Below are positions 2,651-12,263 of a DNA stretch of 64,000 bases, one piece after another. How positions within the stretch are numbered: position 1 is the first letter of the stretch; each line of letters starts with the position of its first letter. The stretch lies in assembly GCF_054482525.1 (NCBI RefSeq), contig NZ_CM137006.1; one strand, written 5' to 3'. Under the pieces are notes generated by a model. The model made no database searches. It was not told the origin of the DNA and was given only the letters and a program-made list of their open reading frames with translations. The position numbers and the translations under genes were made by a program.

Positions 2651-2923
2651 ATATTTAATTTATAGATCACAATGTAGGTTCATGTAATATATGTATACAA
2701 CTATTTTTCTCTTCACTTTTAATTATCGTATTCATTATAACACTAAGTTAAAAAACTCCTGGAGAGTGAGTCATTAATATATTTTTAAATATAATTAAGT
2801 TATTATTCATCGATGCATTTTATAGAATCATCAATGGCTACAATAGTACTATTAACTCTCCAATTTATATTTTTATTATCATTGCAAATATTAACTGAAT
2901 CTATATCAATGATTTTTTTATTT

Positions 2924-3319
2924 TTATCTTTTATTTACAGTTTCAATGCAATCAGCGACAAGTTGGTGTGGATTTAGATTCTTCAGATATGGTCTTATGA
3001 TCTTTCCCTTGCTTAATAAATAGCATGTATAGGATTCGGAAAGTCCAGCATCTATTTTGTACATCATTATTCTAGATAAGGATGTGAGAAATGCCTTGTT
3101 ATCATTAGCAGCCATATATGCCAGTCCGAGTTCAGCCTCTGCGGCTTTACATGAAAAATAGCTAAGTGAACACGCTTTTCGTCCCTCTTGGGTACTGGCT
3201 GATATTAGTGCCCATAATATTGCCTTGTCTGCCAAATCCAACTCTCTCTGAAATTGGTTTACAGTAACTGCATTCGCAGAAATAGAGAAAAAAAGCACAA
3301 TTGTTAATAACCTTGCCAT
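2924..3319 (-). CDS. Orphan immunity-like protein for the adjacent Rhs C-terminal tip; predicted signal peptide
   Basis: 131-aa ORF starting ATG 5 bp after the Rhs-fragment stop; N-terminus MARLLTIVLFFSISANA looks like a Sec signal peptide; AT-rich codon usage. Confidence 0.6.
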   Translation of the reverse strand: MARLLTIVLFFSISANAVTVNQFQRELDLADKAILWALISASTQEGRKACSLSYFSCKAAEAELGLAYMAANDNKAFLTSLSRIMMYKIDAGLSESYTCYLLSKGKIIRPYLKNLNPHQLVADCIETVNKR

Positions 3320-3323
3320 ATTT

Positions 3324-4133
3324 CTAGTCCGTCACTGTTAATGTGCTATCTGGCTCTGAAAATATTAGCTCATTTAATTTTTGCATGTCATTAGATGAAC
3401 CAGTTATACAACCCTCGGAACAGAATCGAGGTCCTAAAGATGGACCAAAAGCGTTTAAACAACTATGTGTTAAAAATCCATCACGATTATACGTTTCTGT
3501 ATTTGCTGACGGTACTAAACGTATACCATTAGGTTTTCTATTAGTTGCTCCAGGACCATTAACATTCCAGCTCCATACCCCTGGAGGTATTGGGCCTCTA
3601 TTTTGTAAGTGTGTACAACCAGGATTATTTTTACATTGCATATTATTACCATTATTACCAGAGGCGACTGAAATAGTAAGCACACCATAAGAATTATCAT
3701 CACTTGGCGTATCTGAAACGCATGAAAGCATACCTAAAGTTATGCTGTATAAACAGGTCGCTAATCCCAACGGGTCAATATCAGTTATCGGATTCAACGG
3801 ATACTGATAAAAATTCCATCCCCCCTTCAGTCCAATCGGATCCTGAGTGATATACCGCCCCTGCAGCTGGTGCGGGTTCTCTTCATTCAGCAGGTTGCCC
3901 CACTCATCGTATTCTGCGCACCATTCTGTTGCCCCTTCCGTGCTGATAAGCACCAGCGGCAGGCCGCGATGGTCGCAGTGGTACAGGTGGATTTTTCGCG
4001 CCGGCGTGTACACCGGGTCCATCTGGTTTTGCATCTGCGCCACCGTCAGGCCGCACGATGCCAGCCAGCGTCGGCTTTCCTCACTCACCCGGTCAGCCAG
4101 GATTTCACTTTCCAGCCGGTCGAGCATCTGCAC
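3324..4133 (-). CDS. Orphan Rhs C-terminal fragment (core end plus divergent toxin tip); no own ATG start
   Basis: Translation [29 protein letters not shown]...[18 protein letters not shown] is near-identical to the rhsA core end in this window, then diverges after the DPxGL motif into a unique Cys-rich tip; ORF-track start is a GTG that is an internal Val codon in rhsA. Confidence 0.7.
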
Positions 4134-4174: not shown

Positions 4175-5017
4175 CTATGAACGCTTCAGCTTATCAATAA
4201 CGGAAGTTATAATTTCATTGTCATCAAACTTGTACAACATAGTATCTAAAACAGGAAGTAGCGTTTTATCACCTAATTCACCCGCAGCTTCAATGATATC
4301 ATCATAAACAGTATTTTTTTTTAACTCATCGCATAAAACAGATAAAACCCTTTTATCTTTTCTGTAGGAAAGTCCGATTATTGCTTCAATACGGACTTCC
4401 TCATTTTTATCCTGAAGCATCTCCACAAAATAATCCCTAATATCACTATTATCATATTTATTGATATTTATTGCAAATGCGGCCCAGTTTCTGACATCTC
4501 CATTTGGATCTTTTAACAGATTAATCAATAGTGGAATTGTTTCTTTATCATTGATAACAGAAATAGCAAATGCCGTAGCACGTCTGACATTAGCCGATTT
4601 ATCAAAAGCAGTAATTTGAGATTGTTCTACTATTTTAGGTGAATAAATTGGGTTTTTCTTGCATCGCTGAGCAGTTGACTCGATTGCTGTAGCTCGAACG
4701 CAAGCACTTTTATCATTCAGTGCCATCTTTTTTAAAATATTAAAAACGCTATCTTCGCATTTTTTGCAAACTTTTATTTGCCCGAGTATAAATGCTCCTA
4801 TATCTCTACGGATATAATTTTTGTCAGCGCAGAATTCAATTGCCAATCTAACAGCGTCTTGCCCACCTCTTAGCTGCAATACTCTGGCAGATGAAATCCT
4901 TTTCAATGAATTGCGATTATCAAGTAAGCGAAATAATTCATCATCATTTAGTTTCTTACATTGATTGTATAAACCATACTCTTTACTTGCCTTTCTTTTC
5001 TGGTATGTATTCGACAT
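4175..5017 (-). CDS. yibA: HEAT-repeat protein
   Basis: Translation MSNTYQKRKASKEYGLYNQCKKLNDDELFRLLDN... matches recalled YibA (280 aa); GGAGG RBS 8 nt upstream of ATG at 5017. ORF-track start at 5032 is a 5-codon extension. Confidence 0.85.
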   Translation of the reverse strand: MSNTYQKRKASKEYGLYNQCKKLNDDELFRLLDNRNSLKRISSARVLQLRGGQDAVRLAIEFCADKNYIRRDIGAFILGQIKVCKKCEDSVFNILKKMALNDKSACVRATAIESTAQRCKKNPIYSPKIVEQSQITAFDKSANVRRATAFAISVINDKETIPLLINLLKDPNGDVRNWAAFAININKYDNSDIRDYFVEMLQDKNEEVRIEAIIGLSYRKDKRVLSVLCDELKKNTVYDDIIEAAGELGDKTLLPVLDTMLYKFDDNEIITSVIDKLKRS

Positions 5018-5121
5018 TGCAGGAACCTCCATAAAGACTATCTTTTTCTATCGTTTGACTGTCTGGAGTCCTCCACCTACTCTGCCATCAGCACACACGA
5101 TGTTTGTTTATCCTTACATAC

Positions 5122-5391
5122 TTATTTTCCGTGGCCAAAATTTAGAATTCTCCCGTCATTTTTGCCTATTTCTATAATAAAAACCCTACCAGCAATTTGG
5201 TCTGATTCAATGGTGCCTTCAACAATCCAACTTGTTGGTAATTCCATGATTTTGTATGGTTTTTCTTCTTCTTCTTCGGCATCATGTCCATAACGATTTT
5301 TAACATACATCTCAGCTAATTCCAATGCTATAGCTTTATTTTTGACCAAATTTCTAACGGTGTATTTCCCCTCACTTTCATACTTGCGCAT
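5122..5391 (-). CDS. Small NTF2-like (YbbC/YhhH-family-like) immunity-type protein
   Basis: 89-aa ORF, ATG start; shares KxxAxxLAExYxKxxYG...KPY...W.xEG...DG pattern with the 115-aa ORF at 6994..7341 and with Rhs-linked YbbC/YhhH proteins as recalled; no clear RBS. Confidence 0.5.
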   Translation of the reverse strand: MRKYESEGKYTVRNLVKNKAIALELAEMYVKNRYGHDAEEEEEKPYKIMELPTSWIVEGTIESDQIAGRVFIIEIGKNDGRILNFGHGK

Positions 5392-5472
5392 TATAATAAT
5401 ATTATTACACTGCGCCCATGTGTTGTATGTAAAAATAAAGATACAATCACATAGGTTCTGAATAATATTTTC

Positions 5473-5838
5473 TTATACGTTGTCATGTATTTTGCAAACA
5501 TTAGGCAATCCTTTTCCATTTATTATATCTTTCCCATGATTATCTATTGCTTTAAAATTTTCACCTATTGACCTTGAATTACTACAATCACTTCCAGTGA
5601 AATCTGAGTTATTCAGAATAGCATTCATCAGAGCCGCATTGCGAAAGACAGCATTTCTAGTTGATGTATGTTGAATCATTACATTTCTTAAATGAGTTTT
5701 TTCAAATTTCGCCCCATCAAGACAATAACCATTGAGGGTGGCACGATGTAGATTCATCCCGCTAAAATCATATCCAGCAAGAGTGGTACTATCTATCTCA
5801 AGAAATTTATTGGTTATTAAAAATGCGATTCTTATCAT
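5473..5838 (-). CDS. Pentapeptide-repeat protein (orphan immunity-like)
   Basis: Translation shows consecutive pentapeptide-like units (ATLNGYCLDGAKFEKTHLRNVMIQHTSTRNAVFRNAALMNAILNNSDFTGSD); first ATG at 5838 preceded by GGAGGA RBS; ORF-track TTG start at 5850 is probably an extension. Confidence 0.6.
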   Translation of the reverse strand: MIRIAFLITNKFLEIDSTTLAGYDFSGMNLHRATLNGYCLDGAKFEKTHLRNVMIQHTSTRNAVFRNAALMNAILNNSDFTGSDCSNSRSIGENFKAIDNHGKDIINGKGLPNVCKIHDNV

Positions 5839-5931
5839 CTGTTCCTCCAATCATCTAACTCCCGAAAAATTTGAAAACCAGAACCTCGCTTAGGCCTGTG
5901 TCCATACTACGTGGGTAGGATTATTCTACGT

Positions 5932-5974
5932 ACTACGCTGTTGTCCCTTACGTGCTGATAAGCGCCAGCGGCAG
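5932..5974 (-). repeat. Isolated ~43-bp scar homologous to the Rhs core-end coding sequence
   Basis: ...gctgttgtcccttacgtgctgataagcgccagcggcagg aligns to rhsA at about 8775..8817 and to the orphan fragment at about 3935..3966, with mismatches; flanks are unrelated. Confidence 0.5.
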
Positions 5975-6090
5975 GTTATTCGGTTTGCGTCGTTGAGTTC
6001 ACTACACTAAAACTCCGTGCCCATATAACCCAAGTCGGAGGCATGCCTTCCTCTGGTTCGTTCCATCTAAAATGTCTATACATAACATGG

Positions 6091-6333
6091 TTATTCAATT
6101 ATTTTTTCTTTGAGTTTATTCTCAATCCAGCTGTCTTTATACCTGATGAAAATTTGACATTCACCAATATTATCAATGTCACCAACATTTGTGTTTCGAA
6201 TTTGACCAACAGCAACTATAGTTGATTCAAAATATTCAACATTGACATTATCTGTAATTATTGAAATTATATAATCATCTGGAATAGAGCCATTAGGAGT
6301 TATATTGAAGAAACTAACATCTGAAAATACCAA
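6091..6333 (-). CDS. Hypothetical small protein (80 aa), possible orphan immunity gene
   Basis: Open frame with only a TTG start and no internal Met; AT-rich; lies downstream of a decayed coding remnant. Weak call. Confidence 0.3.
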   Translation of the reverse strand: MVFSDVSFFNITPNGSIPDDYIISIITDNVNVEYFESTIVAVGQIRNTNVGDIDNIGECQIFIRYKDSWIENKLKEKIIE

Positions 6334-6559
6334 ATAACCATCTTCTAAGTCTTCATTATCATAAAAATTCCATTCTGTTGTACCATAGGCTATCCTTGAG
6401 ATTAAATTAACCTGAATTCTAATTTGTTTACTCCATAAATCAAATTCAATTTTTTATTGCTCGATCACCAAGATATATTCTATCAAACATATTACCCCCC
6501 TATTCTAAAAATACTCAGGCATTCCGCACATTATATCAGCCTCATCTTGATTGCTTCCC

Positions 6560-6840
6560 GTTTCCCAATACGGCGGCGCGGGGAGTCATAAAGGTAAGAA
6601 ATTTCCAGCAGTACGGCGTCCTATTGTTCACGGCGGTAATGCACCAGCCAGTATTGGCTATCGTAGTGATAACCGTGTAACCTGCCGCCGCATCGCGTAT
6701 CTAATGTTCATTCTTTTCCATAAACCGTCCGTACACATTGTGATAGTAAAAATACAATACATCTTCGCTGATGCGGTTATTCTGCTGCATGTGGGAAGCG
6801 CCGAATACTGCTCCCGGTATGGCCAGTAATTACTATTTAG
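6560..6840 (-). pseudogene. Decayed coding remnant (possible orphan toxin-tip fragment)
   Basis: GC-richer patch in AT-rich DNA; minus-strand frames give protein-like stretches (LAIPGAVFGASHMQQNNRISEDVLYFYYHNVYGRFMEKNEH*, AGYTVITTIANTGWCITAVNNRTPYCWKF...) broken by stops; ORF-track 67-aa and 92-aa ORFs overlap here. Confidence 0.3.
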
Positions 6841-6993
6841 TACGACGTTAGGGGGAGTCACTTAATCTCACAGATACTTCAAGTAACAGATGAAAATCGC
6901 TCCTGAAATGAAAAAGAAATTTTTTTGAATGTGTTCCTGTCAAATCAAGTGGTTTTTTCGTCGATATGTAGAGTCATATTGTACACAAAATAG

Positions 6994-7341
6994 TTACGAA
7001 ACACACCTTGGTAAAATATTTGAATCGTCTGAACAGTGGATTATTTTGTGTATTACATCCAACGCTTGCCCATCTTTTTTCGCTATTAGTATTGTAAAAT
7101 TTCCTCCTAACGTCTTCGGTTGTTTTCCCTCGATTTTCCAACAATTATTGTCATCTGTAATACTATATGGTTTCTGAAATTCTGCTTTTTCTTTCCCGTA
7201 TATATATTTAATATAAACATATGATAATTCCAAAGCCATTTCACGACTATTTACTAAAATTTCCGCTGAATTTTCTTTTCCAAATACTGAGTGTGATATT
7301 GTAAACAATATCATAATAAGTAATATTAGTGAGTTTCTCAT
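6994..7341 (-). CDS. Secreted NTF2-like (YbbC/YhhH-family-like) immunity-type protein
   Basis: 115-aa ORF, ATG with AGGTG RBS; N-terminal signal peptide MRNSLILLIMILFTISHSVFG; shares motif pattern with 5122..5391. Confidence 0.6.
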   Translation of the reverse strand: MRNSLILLIMILFTISHSVFGKENSAEILVNSREMALELSYVYIKYIYGKEKAEFQKPYSITDDNNCWKIEGKQPKTLGGNFTILIAKKDGQALDVIHKIIHCSDDSNILPRCVS

Positions 7342-7509
7342 GCTCTACACCTATCGAATCTCAAAAGTTGTGGGTAAAACATTACATTCAGAATATATGA
7401 TATTCTTACCATCGGAATCCATTTTTCCAAATCGACCTTCTGGTGTTCCTGGATACCCATTAAGAACATATTTTTTCGAATAGTTAATTTATTTTCTCAG
7501 GAAGAGATT

Positions 7510-8079
7510 TTATTTTTCTTCACTACGAAGTAGTTCATGCTGTACTTTTGTTAAACATTCGTAAGACTCATCTTTGTTCGGGAGATGTGCTGTCATTCGA
7601 GCATAAGTTGGCTTCTCATCTTTAAAATATTTAACCATGATTGAATTATCAAGGACTGCCAACAACTGAGCTGGATCACTGCTCTTTTTTTGATAGATAC
7701 CCGCTCTTATATAACTTCTAAACCGATCGCCGAGAAACGCCGTTTTTTCTGCTGTATTTAGCAACTCCTGCAACGTTCCTTTGGTTGCATGATTTTCATT
7801 AAGGCGTAGTGATCCGACGCGAATTAAGAGTCTCGCCCCGCTTGGTGTGAATTTGTTATTTTTACATATACCAAGCTCTGTTTGCCAATAATACTCACCT
7901 ATGTCCTCATTCTGATACCATCTCCACATGGTTTTATTATTTAAGACAGGAAACGCGGAAAAAATAGTACCCTTAGTGAAAATGGTAAAGCAATCTTGAT
8001 CTTTAGCTTGTGTTTCGCAATTAGCTATAACACCAAAACTAACGAATATCATCAGCAAAAAGAACAAAGCTCTTTTCAT
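7510..8079 (-). CDS. Putative cognate immunity protein of RhsA (secreted)
   Basis: 189-aa ORF whose ATG overlaps the rhsA stop by 4 bp (8076..8079); N-terminal signal peptide [19 protein letters not shown]; AT-rich relative to the rhsA core. Confidence 0.65.
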
Positions 8080-11000
8080 TTTCTTATTCCTCTCGATGTT
8101 CTCTGTTTCATTTTAGCTAAAATTTCACCCAAATCATCTATCCCTGCTGTTGCTGGCCCATCGGGTTTATTAATGTCTGGGAATAAATAGGGTTCTGCAC
8201 AAGTATATCCTGGTGGTAATTGAGTTGTTGGCCAAGTTGTCTGTGGCAGGTAATCACTTGCTGTCTTTGTCTCCATCCCTGGATACTGGGGATCATCCTG
8301 CGGCGTACAAGTCAGATTGGGTTTTACCCACTTCCTGCAATACAGTGTGTAATCGTAAGGACTTAATGCTCTGAAGAATGTTTTGAAAACATTAGGCGCA
8401 CTACTGGCCTGGTCAATAGGATATGGCAGTCTTAATTGTTTCGCTATGTCTGGCAACTTACTTGGATCGGGCGTAGGCGGTTTGTTGGGTCTCGCTCCAT
8501 ATCCGCCATTATTTAAGTGTCCATATTTAGATGCCAGTCCCATTGAATCTATATACTGAACCGGATTTAACGGATACTGATAAAAATTCCATCCCCCCTT
8601 CAGTCCAATCGGATCCTGAGTGATATACCGCCCCTGCAGCGGGTCATAATAGCGGTGGCGGTTGTAATACAGGCCTGACTCCTCATCATACTGCTGACCC
8701 GGCAGGCGGATGAGCTGCTGCAGCTGGTGCGGGTTATCCTCACTCAGCTGGTTACCCCATTCATCGTATTCTGCGTACCATTCTGTTGCCCCTTCCGTGC
8801 TGACAAGCGCCAGCGGCAGGCCGCGATGGTCGCAGTGGTACAGGTGGATTTTTCGCGCCGGCGTGTACACCGGGTCCATCTGGTTTTGCATCTGCTCCAC
8901 CGTCAGGCCGCACGATGCCAGCCAGCGGCGGCTTTCCTCACTCACCCGGTCAGTAAGGATTTCACTTTCCAGCCGGTCGAGCATCTGCACCAGCACCGGC
9001 GGGAACACCACATCACCACCGTCTTCACCGCCGGACTGCTGAAGCGCATCCGCCAGGCTGCGGCGCTGCGTTTTCGCCAGCTCACCGGTGGCAGTTTCAA
9101 CTCTGATGAGTGGCGTGAAGCTCCCCGGCTGATAAACCGTCTGGATGCGGGTTCTGTCGTTCTGTATCGTGGTCAGCCGGTCGCCGTCCCAGCCGTACCA
9201 GGTCACTTCCGGTTTCCGTGACAGCGACATCCAGCCCGTCAGGTCCCGTTCACGCCGCCACACCCGTTTTGCCACCCTGCGGCCCAGCGGGTCGTAAAGA
9301 TAGCGACTTTCGACCAGCGGCTCTGCATATTGTGTCCGCGTGTAGTGCACCAGCCGGTGCTGACTGTCGTAATGGTACTGGTGAGTCCGCTCATCATCCG
9401 TGCGGATAACCCCTTCCGGGATGAGGTCGGTTTTCTCTGTCAGCCTGCCGTGACGGTCATACCGGTAAAGATAGTGCGCGTCACGGGCGATACGGTTATC
9501 CGGCCACATGCTGAGGGTGCTGTCCGGGTGCAGCTCCGGGTCGGGCAGGCGGTTACCTGCCGGGTCTGTGGCATACGGGATGCGGATATCAAGGTTCGCT
9601 GCCGTGGTGTGAACGCCGGTCAGCCTGCCGGAGTCGCTGTAGCTGTAACTCCGGGTCTGGCGCGGGCTGCTGATGCGGATGAGTTCGCCGTTGTCGTTCC
9701 AGGTGTAATCGCGGTCATACTGCAGGCTGTTCAGATGCTGGCTCTGTAACTGCCCGGCAGGGGTGTAAGCGGTGGTGAGTTCATAACGGCCGAAGCTGCG
9801 CAGCGTTTCCCGGTGCAGGCGGTCGCGGGTGAAATCCACCAGCGGTGTGTCGCCGAGTTTCATGCCTGACAGCCAGCCGCTGCCGTAGGTCAGCCATTCC
9901 ACGGCGGGCAGGCTGTCCGGTATACAGCGGTTCGCCAGTCCCTGCGCGTTGTAAGCGTGTCTGGTTTCATGCTGCCAGAGCAGTGCTTCCGTCTGCGGGT
10001 GATGCACCGTCTGGCGCTCACCGGTCAGGCGGCCTTTCTCATCATACCCGTAATGCACCGTCACCCGGTGGCCTTCGCTGAGATGGCTGATTTGTGTCAG
10101 CCAGCCGCGTTCGTCATACTGCCACTGCTCTGCCGGTTCACCCTTCACGGTGCGGTGAGTGAGGCGGTCTGCTTCGTCATAGTGCCAGTGGGTGACCAGC
10201 CCCTCATCCTCGCTGCGGATAAGTTTGCCGGTCAGGTCGTGGTGATAACGCTGTGTGCGGCCGTCAAAGCCGGTTTCCTGTATCAGCCGGTCAAGTACAT
10301 CGTAACGGAAGGTGGTGTGGCTGCCGTTTTCACTGGTCAGGCGGATGACCCGTCCGGCAGCATCGTATTCCATACTGCGCGTCAGACCGCCCTGCGTGGT
10401 ACGGATGGCCTTTCCCCACGCATCGTACTGTGTCCCGTTTCTGCTGCCGTCCGGGGCAATGACGGCGGTCAGGTCACCGGCGGCGTTGTATTCATACCGC
10501 GTTTCATGGCCCTGCATGTCTTTCACCGCAATTAACTGTCCACGGCTGTCGTATGCGCGGTACTGGCTCAGGCCTTCCTCGCGGTGCACCGCCGTCACCT
10601 GACCAAAACGGTCATGGTCATAACGGGTTACATAACCGGAACAGTCAGTGACGGTCAGCAACTGACCGTAACGGCTCCATGTCATGGTTTTCCGGCTGCC
10701 GGTGGCATCCTCCGTTGCGCAGGGTAAGTCACTGTGTGGATTATCATAACGGTAGCGGGTGATATCGCCGTCAGGGGCAGTTTCCTGAATCAGACGGCCG
10801 GATTCATCATATTCCCGGCGTATTTCCAGCCCGTCAGTCCCGGTGGCTGACGTTAACTGGCTGTGGTGGTTATAGTAAAACGCCGATGCCCTGCCATCCG
10901 GCGTGGTGATGCGCGTGATGAGGCCCGTCACCACATCCGGGCTGTATTCTGTTGTCCGGCCTGCGGCATCCGTCTGTGCCTTAAGCCTGCCCACCGCATC

Positions 11001-12263
11001 AAACTGACTCTGCGTGACGCTGCCGTCCGCGTGTTCCTTTTTCACCACCCGCTTCAGCCCGCCTTCGCCCTGCGTGTGCAGCACTTCACGGCGGTCCAGA
11101 CTGTCGGTGATGGTGATGCGGTCTTTCTCATACTGATACGTGTAGCTTAAGCCTGCCGGGTTTAGCTGCTCTGTCACCCGCCCGTCGCTGTCGTAACGGT
11201 AACGGATTTCCGGCCGGCCCGTGTGACGGTGCGCCACCATCCGGCCCCGGTATTTATCATCGTAAGTAAAGCTGCGCACCTGTGTATTGCTGCGGTCATA
11301 CACCGCCGCCAGTTCGCCGCGCGGCGTCCAGCCATAGCGTACCAGCGGCGCGGCTGGCAGGTTATCCGGATATTCCGGGTCGTGCGTCAGCCACACGGCA
11401 GACAGACGGATGCCGTTGTCCCGGCCATATTCGGTGTAACCCGGCAGGGTATCAGGAAAAGCGGACGGTTCCGTCCCGCCGGAAATGGCCTGCTGCCGGG
11501 CTTCTTCTGCCCGCTGCGCCTGCGTGGTCAGTACCAGCCGGAAGTGACGCCCGGCACCATCCGTCACGCCGCTGAATTCGCCGCCAGCCTCACGGTGGAA
11601 CGTCTGTGTGCGCCCGAAGCGGTCCACCAGCCCGGTCAGTACCCGGTACGGCGGCAGCGGCGCAGGCAGCACCTCATCCGCCTCCGGCACCCGCTCACAC
11701 CAGCCGAGTACCCACCACGGCCCCTGCGGACTGTTCGTCGCCAGATAACGATGCGGACTCAGGCGAAGCTCTTCCGGCAGCGCCTGCCAGAGTGCGGCCA
11801 GCCGGTGACCTTCATCCAGTTTCGCCACGCCGCCACGCACCAGCCAGAGTGACTCGCTGCGGCTGTAACCGTCCTCACCGGGAAACAGGTGCTCAAAATA
11901 CAGGCTCCTGCCGCCGTTATCACTGAGTATCAGTGTGTTATCGCGCAGCTGTAAGCGGATATCCGCGGGCATTTTCCAGCCGGGGCCGAGGCTCCCCACC
12001 GGCGCGGGCGTTTTTGTCCGGTAACTGCTGTAGGTGCGGGAGAGGATGAACGGCAGCGGGCCGGGCAGGGCAAGGTCGGTTTCGCCGGGAAGGACCTTCG
12101 CGCCGAGCAGCGGATTGACCGGATGGCCGGACGTCACCCCGCCGGGGCACACCGAACAGGCCACGCCGGTGGGGGCACCGATGCGCACCCCGGCTGAACC
12201 CTGAACAATGCTACCGCCATACTGCGTCATGTCGCCCTGACGCGCCGCCGGTTTTCCGCTCAT
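8076..12263 (-). CDS. rhsA: Rhs-family polymorphic toxin: PAAR-like N-terminus, YD-repeat core, variant C-terminal tip
   Basis: 1395-aa ORF beginning [29 protein letters not shown], repeated YD/RY motifs, conserved [15 protein letters not shown] near the end followed by a ~170-aa proline-rich tip; sits beside yibF as rhsA does in K-12; GC-rich core. Confidence 0.95.

Follow-up and report, generated by a model that had tools for sequence, protein, structure and literature searches.

Start-less frames downstream of an Escherichia coli rhsA gene as probable relics of Rhs tip replacement

The window, which is the whole 64,000-nucleotide stretch of contig NZ_CM137006.1 (RefSeq assembly GCF_054482525.1) analysed here, represents the E. 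coli rhsA locus, with yibI and yibH (844-2345) on one side and yibF and selA (from 12492) on the other. Its main Rhs gene (8076-12263, minus strand) is full-length in the list of open reading frames, encodes 1,395 residues, is named 'RHS element core protein' by PGAP and has a GC content of about 0.6. Homology to K-12 ybfO showed that the tip of this Rhs is of the YbfO type, and the adjoining gene (7510-8079, minus strand, 189 aa) is its YbfC-type immunity gene, whose product shares 176 of 189 residues with K-12 YbfC. The array located 3' of the main gene has a low GC content and consists of immunity genes and rhs debris on the minus strand. The YbfO-type tip on the main Rhs is an incomer which displaced older modules.

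The RefSeq annotation of strain PCN033 (L001), whose stretch is identical to the window, was employed as the reference. In order, it gives a 189-aa hypothetical gene at 7510-8079, the 'NTF2 fold immunity protein' at 6994-7341, the 'DUF6258 family protein' at 6091-6393, pentapeptide-repeat pseudogenes, a second NTF2 immunity gene with a frameshift, yibA, a Tlde1-tipped orphan Rhs fragment and a frameshifted Imm57 gene. It contains no feature at 7351-7488 or 6558-6840. Over 5900-8100, PCN033 and the window are 100% identical. The window has an uninterrupted main Rhs ORF (1,395 aa), and its PCN033 counterpart was flagged by PGAP as a pseudogene with an internal stop; the window therefore probably derives from another strain, or else the two differ upstream of 8100. 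A preliminary description of this DNA had pointed to protein-like frames without starts in these two places, and had suggested that both could be C-terminal stumps of displaced toxin tips whose immunity genes survive.

The frame between the 189-aa and 115-aa genes is present on the minus strand as 45 codons, INYSKKYVLNGYPGTPEGRFGKMDSDGKNIIYSECNVLPTTFEIR, at 7354-7488 with its stop at 7351-7353, so the upper end given previously was 2 nt short. No ATG, GTG or TTG stands at its head, and an in-frame TAA lies directly before it. The stop codon overlaps AGGTG, a Shine-Dalgarno-like motif located 6 nt ahead of the 115-aa gene's ATG (7341). The last 45 residues of an intact Rhs protein from the E. 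coli assembly L002 were identical to the frame at 42 of 45 positions (blastp, E=5e-28). This intact Rhs carries the Pfam domain DUF4329 (PF14220) at residues 631-741 (E=6e-32), and the 45-codon peptide alone gave a sub-threshold match to positions 86-111 of the same profile (E=0.18). The frame was thus correctly described as the C-terminal stump of a displaced toxin tip, namely a DUF4329/Tox-JAB-2 Rhs tip. An intact tip-plus-immunity pair, which the preliminary description had proposed to look for in other genomes, was found for this frame in three E. coli assemblies (L002, L003 and L005), where an Rhs with the DUF4329 tip is followed 9 nt later by the gene for P0007. The intact toxin was located through its neighbour, the immunity-gene homologue P0007; a word-indexed protein search with the 45-aa peptide returned two short ORFs (P0001 and P0002, 38-39 aa) and missed it.

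At the DNA level, positions 6922-7488 of the window aligned to positions 2134-2702 of L002 with 515 of 569 positions identical (91%) and with sharp ends on both sides. This minus-strand block is what survives of the old module, and comprises the stump, the immunity gene and about 70 bp of 3' flank. The homology starts at 7488, which is codon 1 of the 45-codon frame and corresponds to residue 712 of the intact relative. In the intact toxin, the segment AYHTHGAYNRHYENEEFSPAD is directly followed by INYSKK, the beginning of the stump, and both the HTH and the SxxD (here SPAD) elements are located just upstream of residue 712. Zhang et al. 2012 (PMC3482391) defined DUF4329 as Tox-JAB-2, with the conserved motif E, H[ST]H, S, D and with Imm-NTF2-2 as its partner. 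No residue of this motif is retained in the 45-codon stump. Because the homology begins only one residue past the HTH...SxxD motif, the stump is catalytically dead. It has neither an attached Rhs core nor a PxxxxDPxGL boundary; upstream of it lies the 3' flank of the YbfC-type gene (7489-7509), which forms the junction with the stump.

The truncated copy was detected in 847 of 5,426 complete E. coli genomes, in all of which it starts at the same query position. The frame is still open in most strains, and a multi-strain alignment revealed a 1-bp deletion inside the stump in one strain. DNA searches of the same 5,426 genomes found relic copies only, and no intact DUF4329 tip of the stump's allele. 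The frame and the GC-richer patch described below are together kept at 95-100% in about 845 of these genomes, and no annotated feature lies under either among the matches listed. The genes flanking the intact pair in L002 (yafV, ivy and fadE) are up to 98.4% identical to those of complete E. coli genomes; therefore the intact toxin-immunity pair occurs in E. coli proper, though rarely. The relic differs from the intact module at 9% of DNA positions, compared with about 1.6% between the L002 flanking housekeeping genes and complete E. coli genomes. This result suggested that the intact copy is a diverged cousin of the ancestor rather than the ancestor itself.

The 115-aa gene following the stump (6994-7341, minus strand) was annotated by PGAP as 'NTF2 fold immunity protein' and matched Pfam PF15631 (E=7e-18) over profile positions 1-67 of 68, which makes it an orphan Imm-NTF2-2 immunity gene. 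Its product is 84% identical to P0007, the 100-aa product of the gene after the intact toxin in L002, and the 9-nt spacing between stump and PF15631 gene is the same as in the intact pair. By homology and position, the gene is the putative immunity gene cognate to the lost Tox-JAB-2 tip. The survival of immunity genes that had been proposed holds only in part. The 115-aa gene keeps nearly its whole domain, its start and the Shine-Dalgarno-like motif in the window, but compared with all other copies it carries a 2-bp deletion near the 3' end, by which the last three residues (HTK) are replaced with an 18-residue tail; the DUF6258 gene farther along is frameshifted, and the Imm-NTF2-2 gene is inactivated elsewhere. 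Its ATG is changed to ACG in B-type strains and UMNK88, and it has a premature TAA in O157:H7 EDL933; accordingly, PGAP calls remnants of 66-75 aa in those strains. In the window lineage, the gene may have kept some residual function, judging from what is left of it.

The junction between ybfC and the stump was identical in 7 of 7 aligned copies. The K-12 ybfO-ybfC block is 96% identical in DNA to positions 7468-9000 of the window, and K-12 therefore shares this junction and retains about 21 nt of the stump ahead of H-repeat sequences. Since the junction is the same in the aligned copies and in K-12, the truncation looks like a single old event that preceded the split of K-12, B, O157 and the window lineage. 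The shared junction would also place the swap from a Tox-JAB-2 to a YbfO-type tip before the separation of the O157:H7, B, C, K-12 and window lineages.

The position of this block differs among strains. In O157:H7 EDL933 (L012), the YbfO-type tip, ybfC, the Tox-JAB-2 stump, Imm-NTF2-2, the core fragment and DUF6258 are found at the rhsC locus (ybfA...ybgA), and the gene order was the same in the shorter stretches fetched from NEBExpress (L013, B-derived) and UMNK88 (L015). The window and PCN033 carry it at rhsA (yibF...yibH). The array as a whole has therefore been relocated between rhs loci, presumably through recombination in the conserved core.

The second feature is a patch whose GC content (0.44-0.45) is higher than that of its flanks (0.28-0.34). 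It reads in two minus-strand frames (6677-6790 and 6558-6689) and contains one frameshift and two in-frame stops within 78 codons, the stops standing where relatives have Q; the reading frame is not intact. When the window's own Rhs was compared with 5000-8100 by tblastn, two colinear hits in two frames were obtained (E=1e-11), which placed residues 919-946 at 6708-6791 and residues 959-1000 at 6559-6684. An exhaustive phmmer search of 1.84 billion representatives with an 83-aa reconstruction of the patch returned 48 Rhs-type proteins at E<=0.001. Pfam domains of the Rhs, VgrG or DUF6531 type were present in all six of the full-length hits that were scanned, and the nearest clusters, from Salmonella enterica, S. 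bongori and Citrobacter, bear the name Rhs. With Salmonella and Citrobacter Rhs proteins as tblastn queries, the homology was bounded to 6558-6790, and the best match was an S. houtenae Rhs (E=1.6e-22). The RHS_repeat model was not hit in a Pfam scan of the reconstruction, because the fragment is too decayed, and the homology was established by tblastn and phmmer instead. The patch is a decayed fragment of the Rhs core (YD-repeat shell) on the minus strand. The ~130 bp between the two relic blocks (6791-6921) matched neither the L002 downstream sequence nor Rhs proteins.

In a multiple alignment, the patch shares 64.5% of its residues with the S. houtenae core, compared with 47-49% for E. coli RhsA, RhsC, RhsD and the L002 Rhs. 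The patch has the 4-residue deletion of the Salmonella/Citrobacter type (no 'IPEG') as well as the motifs IRD..GGY, HYRREQ and RRIGKR of that type, and no DNA-level match to the main Rhs core was obtained. The main Rhs as the source of this piece was ruled out by the amino-acid identity of 47%, the absence of a DNA hit and the clade-specific indel, and an L002-type or RhsD-type core was rejected on the same grounds. A toxin-tip C-terminus was also rejected, since the residues matched by the patch, 919-1000 of about 1,395, are in the core, far upstream of the PxxxxDPxGL boundary at about residue 1240. Together, homology and alignment indicate that the patch is an old, decayed internal core piece from a non-resident clade, which by its sequence is of a Salmonella/Citrobacter-like type and not of the resident RhsA clade. 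The preliminary description was right in seeing rhs debris with protein-like, stop-interrupted frames upstream of an orphan immunity gene, but the debris is core (residues 919-1000) rather than tip, and its homologous part, 6558-6790, is shorter than the span of 6560-6840 given for it.

The true stump of the tip that belonged to the next gene is not the patch, as had been supposed, but adjoins it below the coordinate that had been claimed. It consists of the last 18 codons of a second toxin, TGSNQDEADIMCGMPEYF, at 6508-6561 on the minus strand with its stop at 6505-6507, and was identified by homology to L008 and L009. Positions 6380-6562 of the window are 98.9% identical to the 3' end of an Rhs tip and the start of a DUF6258 gene in these two sequences; in L008 (strain OkiPb01700) the tip sits on a full-length, frameshifted Rhs, and in L009 (strain EC581) it belongs to a 300-aa orphan. 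Both tips end with YVEMSTGSNQDEADIMCGMPEYF and a stop, of which the window retains TGSNQDEADIMCGMPEYF and the stop, and the homology ceases at 6562. Therefore, the core fragment is fused directly to the last 18 codons of the tip, at about 6562/6563. The simplest reading would be a deletion with one end within the core of one orphan and the other close to where the tip of the following orphan ends.

The DUF6258 gene (6091-6490, minus strand) matched Pfam PF19772 with E=1.9e-12, covering only profile positions 44-104. Its ATG is at 6488-6490, 14 nt after the stop of the tip, and PGAP calls only 6091-6393 (100 aa). DUF6258 also directly follows the Rhs tips in L008 and L009, and this arrangement makes it the presumed immunity partner of the second tip that was lost. 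Within the gene, 35 nt from its start, a poly-A tract (6450-6455) is A6 in the window, which leaves the gene frameshifted. The site was compared in L001, L007-L009, L012, L013 and L015; the tract is A8 in UMNK88 and L007 and A7 in O157, B, L008 and L009, and only A8 gives a continuous 133-aa DUF6258 ORF. The tract is A7, and thus out of frame, even in L008 and L009, where the cognate tip persists. The variation could be slippage-prone phase variation, homopolymer assembly error or plain decay.

Arrays of this kind have been described before. In C-terminal displacement, incoming tips displace resident tips (Jackson et al. 2009, PMC2935791), and orphan toxin/immunity modules were described by Poole et al. 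2011 (PMC3150448); displacement leaves a series of tip fragments without starts, pieces of core and immunity genes (PMC2935791, PMC3150448). Like the dissociated or orphan Rhs tips of these two papers, the window shows a full rhs gene followed by a low-GC array of core and tip fragments and immunity genes, the tip is on the full gene in some strains and detached in others, and related strains share the arrangement. Typical orphans consist of a 3' core fragment, the PxxxxDPxGL boundary and a complete tip, whereas the tips considered here are reduced to 45 and 18 codons and are coreless; the pieces are more eroded than typical orphans. Jackson et al. (PMC2935791) reported core fragments of the resident clade only at each locus, and noted that downstream dissociated tips are generally missing from E. 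coli clade I loci (rhsABCF). The window departs from both descriptions, since its internal core piece is of a non-resident clade and its clade-I locus is followed by a long debris array.

The stump and the 115-aa gene resemble the known Tox-JAB-2/Imm-NTF2-2 pair, because the intact relative of the stump is a DUF4329 protein with HTH...SxxD which is followed by an Imm-NTF2-2 gene. K-12 RhsD and YbbC are organized likewise: RhsD ends with ...HTH...SSSD..., and YbbC, which comes after it, is annotated to the PF15631 family. Unlike that pair, the window retains only what follows the motif in the domain. It also represents a different allele, as the stump can be aligned with RhsD only over a stretch of 19 residues, 8 of which match, and the 115-aa protein and YbbC share 41% identity. 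The K-12 rhsC orphan ybfO-ybfC shares the tip, the immunity gene and the post-ybfC junction with the window. In K-12, ybfO-ybfC is orphaned at rhsC, with H-repeat (ISAs1) genes after it, whereas in the window the module is loaded on the full-length rhsA gene and followed by the stump, Imm-NTF2-2, the core fragment and DUF6258.

We consider it very probable that the two frames without starts are inert pseudogene remnants, which date from the repeated exchange of toxic Rhs tips (C-terminal displacement) and from subsequent deletions. An ancestral rhs gene carried a DUF4329/Tox-JAB-2 tip followed by an Imm-NTF2-2 gene, and the last 45 codons of that toxin and the immunity gene are what now lies directly after the YbfO-type tip and ybfC. 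The newer tip would have come in by homologous recombination on one side, within the conserved core, and by an illegitimate join inside the old tip on the other, probably once and long ago. Further downstream, a deletion would have joined the foreign-clade core piece (6558-6790) to the tip codons at 6508-6561, before DUF6258. The immunity genes were at first probably kept against kin with the old toxins, and are now drifting. We infer the order and mechanism of the recombination events from their end products only.

The chance-frame explanation, under which the frames are random open frames in AT-rich intergenic DNA or small independent genes, would fit the 38-39 aa ORFs that gene callers predicted here (P0001 and P0002) and the fact that AT-rich spacers can hold short frames. 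It is refuted by strong homology, with E=5e-28 for the C-terminus of an Rhs toxin and with E=1e-11 and 1.6e-22 for Rhs cores. The missing start at the head of the 45-codon frame and the stops and frameshift of the patch also speak against it, and we give it practically no weight. Both features are real and lie at about the coordinates first reported. Another explanation gives the selected role to the DNA of the stump rather than its peptide, as a carrier of signals through which the orphan immunity gene is expressed (the Shine-Dalgarno-like site, perhaps a promoter within the stump, or coupled translation). The AGGTG motif 6 nt before the immunity ATG does overlap the stump's stop codon, an arrangement shared by the intact pair, and in CDI systems orphan immunity genes are expressed and orphan toxins are not (PMC3150448). 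However, a Shine-Dalgarno site needs only the last 10-15 nt of the stump. A promoter and terminator scan of 6000-8200 found fewer promoter-like sites than shuffled sequences (7 versus 9.0), none of them inside the stump, and no terminators, so a regulatory role of the stump is unsupported. The inactivation of the immunity gene in O157 and B-type strains and the 1-bp deletion in the stump of one strain argue for drift. We therefore regard such a role as quite unlikely.

The fragments might also form a functional reserve that can be recombined onto the main rhs gene for toxin switching. Reloading of orphan toxins has been proposed or documented for CDI and Rhs arrays (PMC3150448), and the window does contain a fuller orphan (core end and Tlde1 tip, 3324-4133). 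The 45-codon stump, however, has neither core sequence nor catalytic motif, and the core piece is internal, stop-ridden, of another clade, without DNA homology to the main core and attached to only 18 tip codons. We judge a reserve role of these fragments to be very improbable. Koskiniemi et al. (2014, PLoS Genet) reportedly described Salmonella orphan Rhs recombining onto the main rhs gene with a switch of toxin. Neither relic here can make a toxin, because a start and catalytic residues are absent and the core piece is broken by stops and a frameshift, and neither can reload the main gene, because the core piece lacks DNA-level homology to it.

Under the pseudogene-relic interpretation, the two frames are ordinary, that is, unannotated rhs pseudogene fragments of a well-described kind. 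A bolder claim would be that the foreign-clade core in an E. coli clade-I (rhsA/rhsC) array constitutes an exception to the resident-clade-only rule and that, separately, the A6/A7/A8 tract acts as a slippage switch of the orphan DUF6258 gene, which we consider unlikely. If the foreign-clade core does form such an exception, rhs cassettes from other clades or genera would be able to enter through illegitimate recombination. The current understanding of Rhs biology is unchanged by these results, which are in line with the erosion of orphan immunity genes once the matching toxin becomes rare. In practice, the pieces can now be labelled as rhs pseudogene fragments in ~845 complete E. coli genomes, with Tox-JAB-2 tip remnant, core remnant and second tip remnant as the available labels.

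Other debris was observed farther along the array. A third scrap of Rhs core, LPLALIST*GTTA*YVE, lies at 5922-5975 on the minus strand, just upstream of the pentapeptide-repeat pseudogene. It contains two stops and corresponds to main-Rhs residues 1148-1166. Its DNA is 87% identical to that of the main gene, and so it belongs to the resident clade. Positions 5122-5850 (minus strand) hold a pentapeptide-repeat ORF of 125 aa, given by PGAP as two partial pseudogenes, followed by a second Imm-NTF2-2 gene, an 89-aa ORF that is frameshifted according to PGAP and whose product is 56% identical to K-12 YbbC, the partner of RhsD. A more typical orphan, a 269-aa Rhs fragment composed of a core end and a Tlde1-domain tip, is located at 3324-4133 (minus strand), and its core end shows 94-98% DNA identity to the main core. 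It is followed by a frameshifted Imm57 gene at 2800-3320 on the minus strand.
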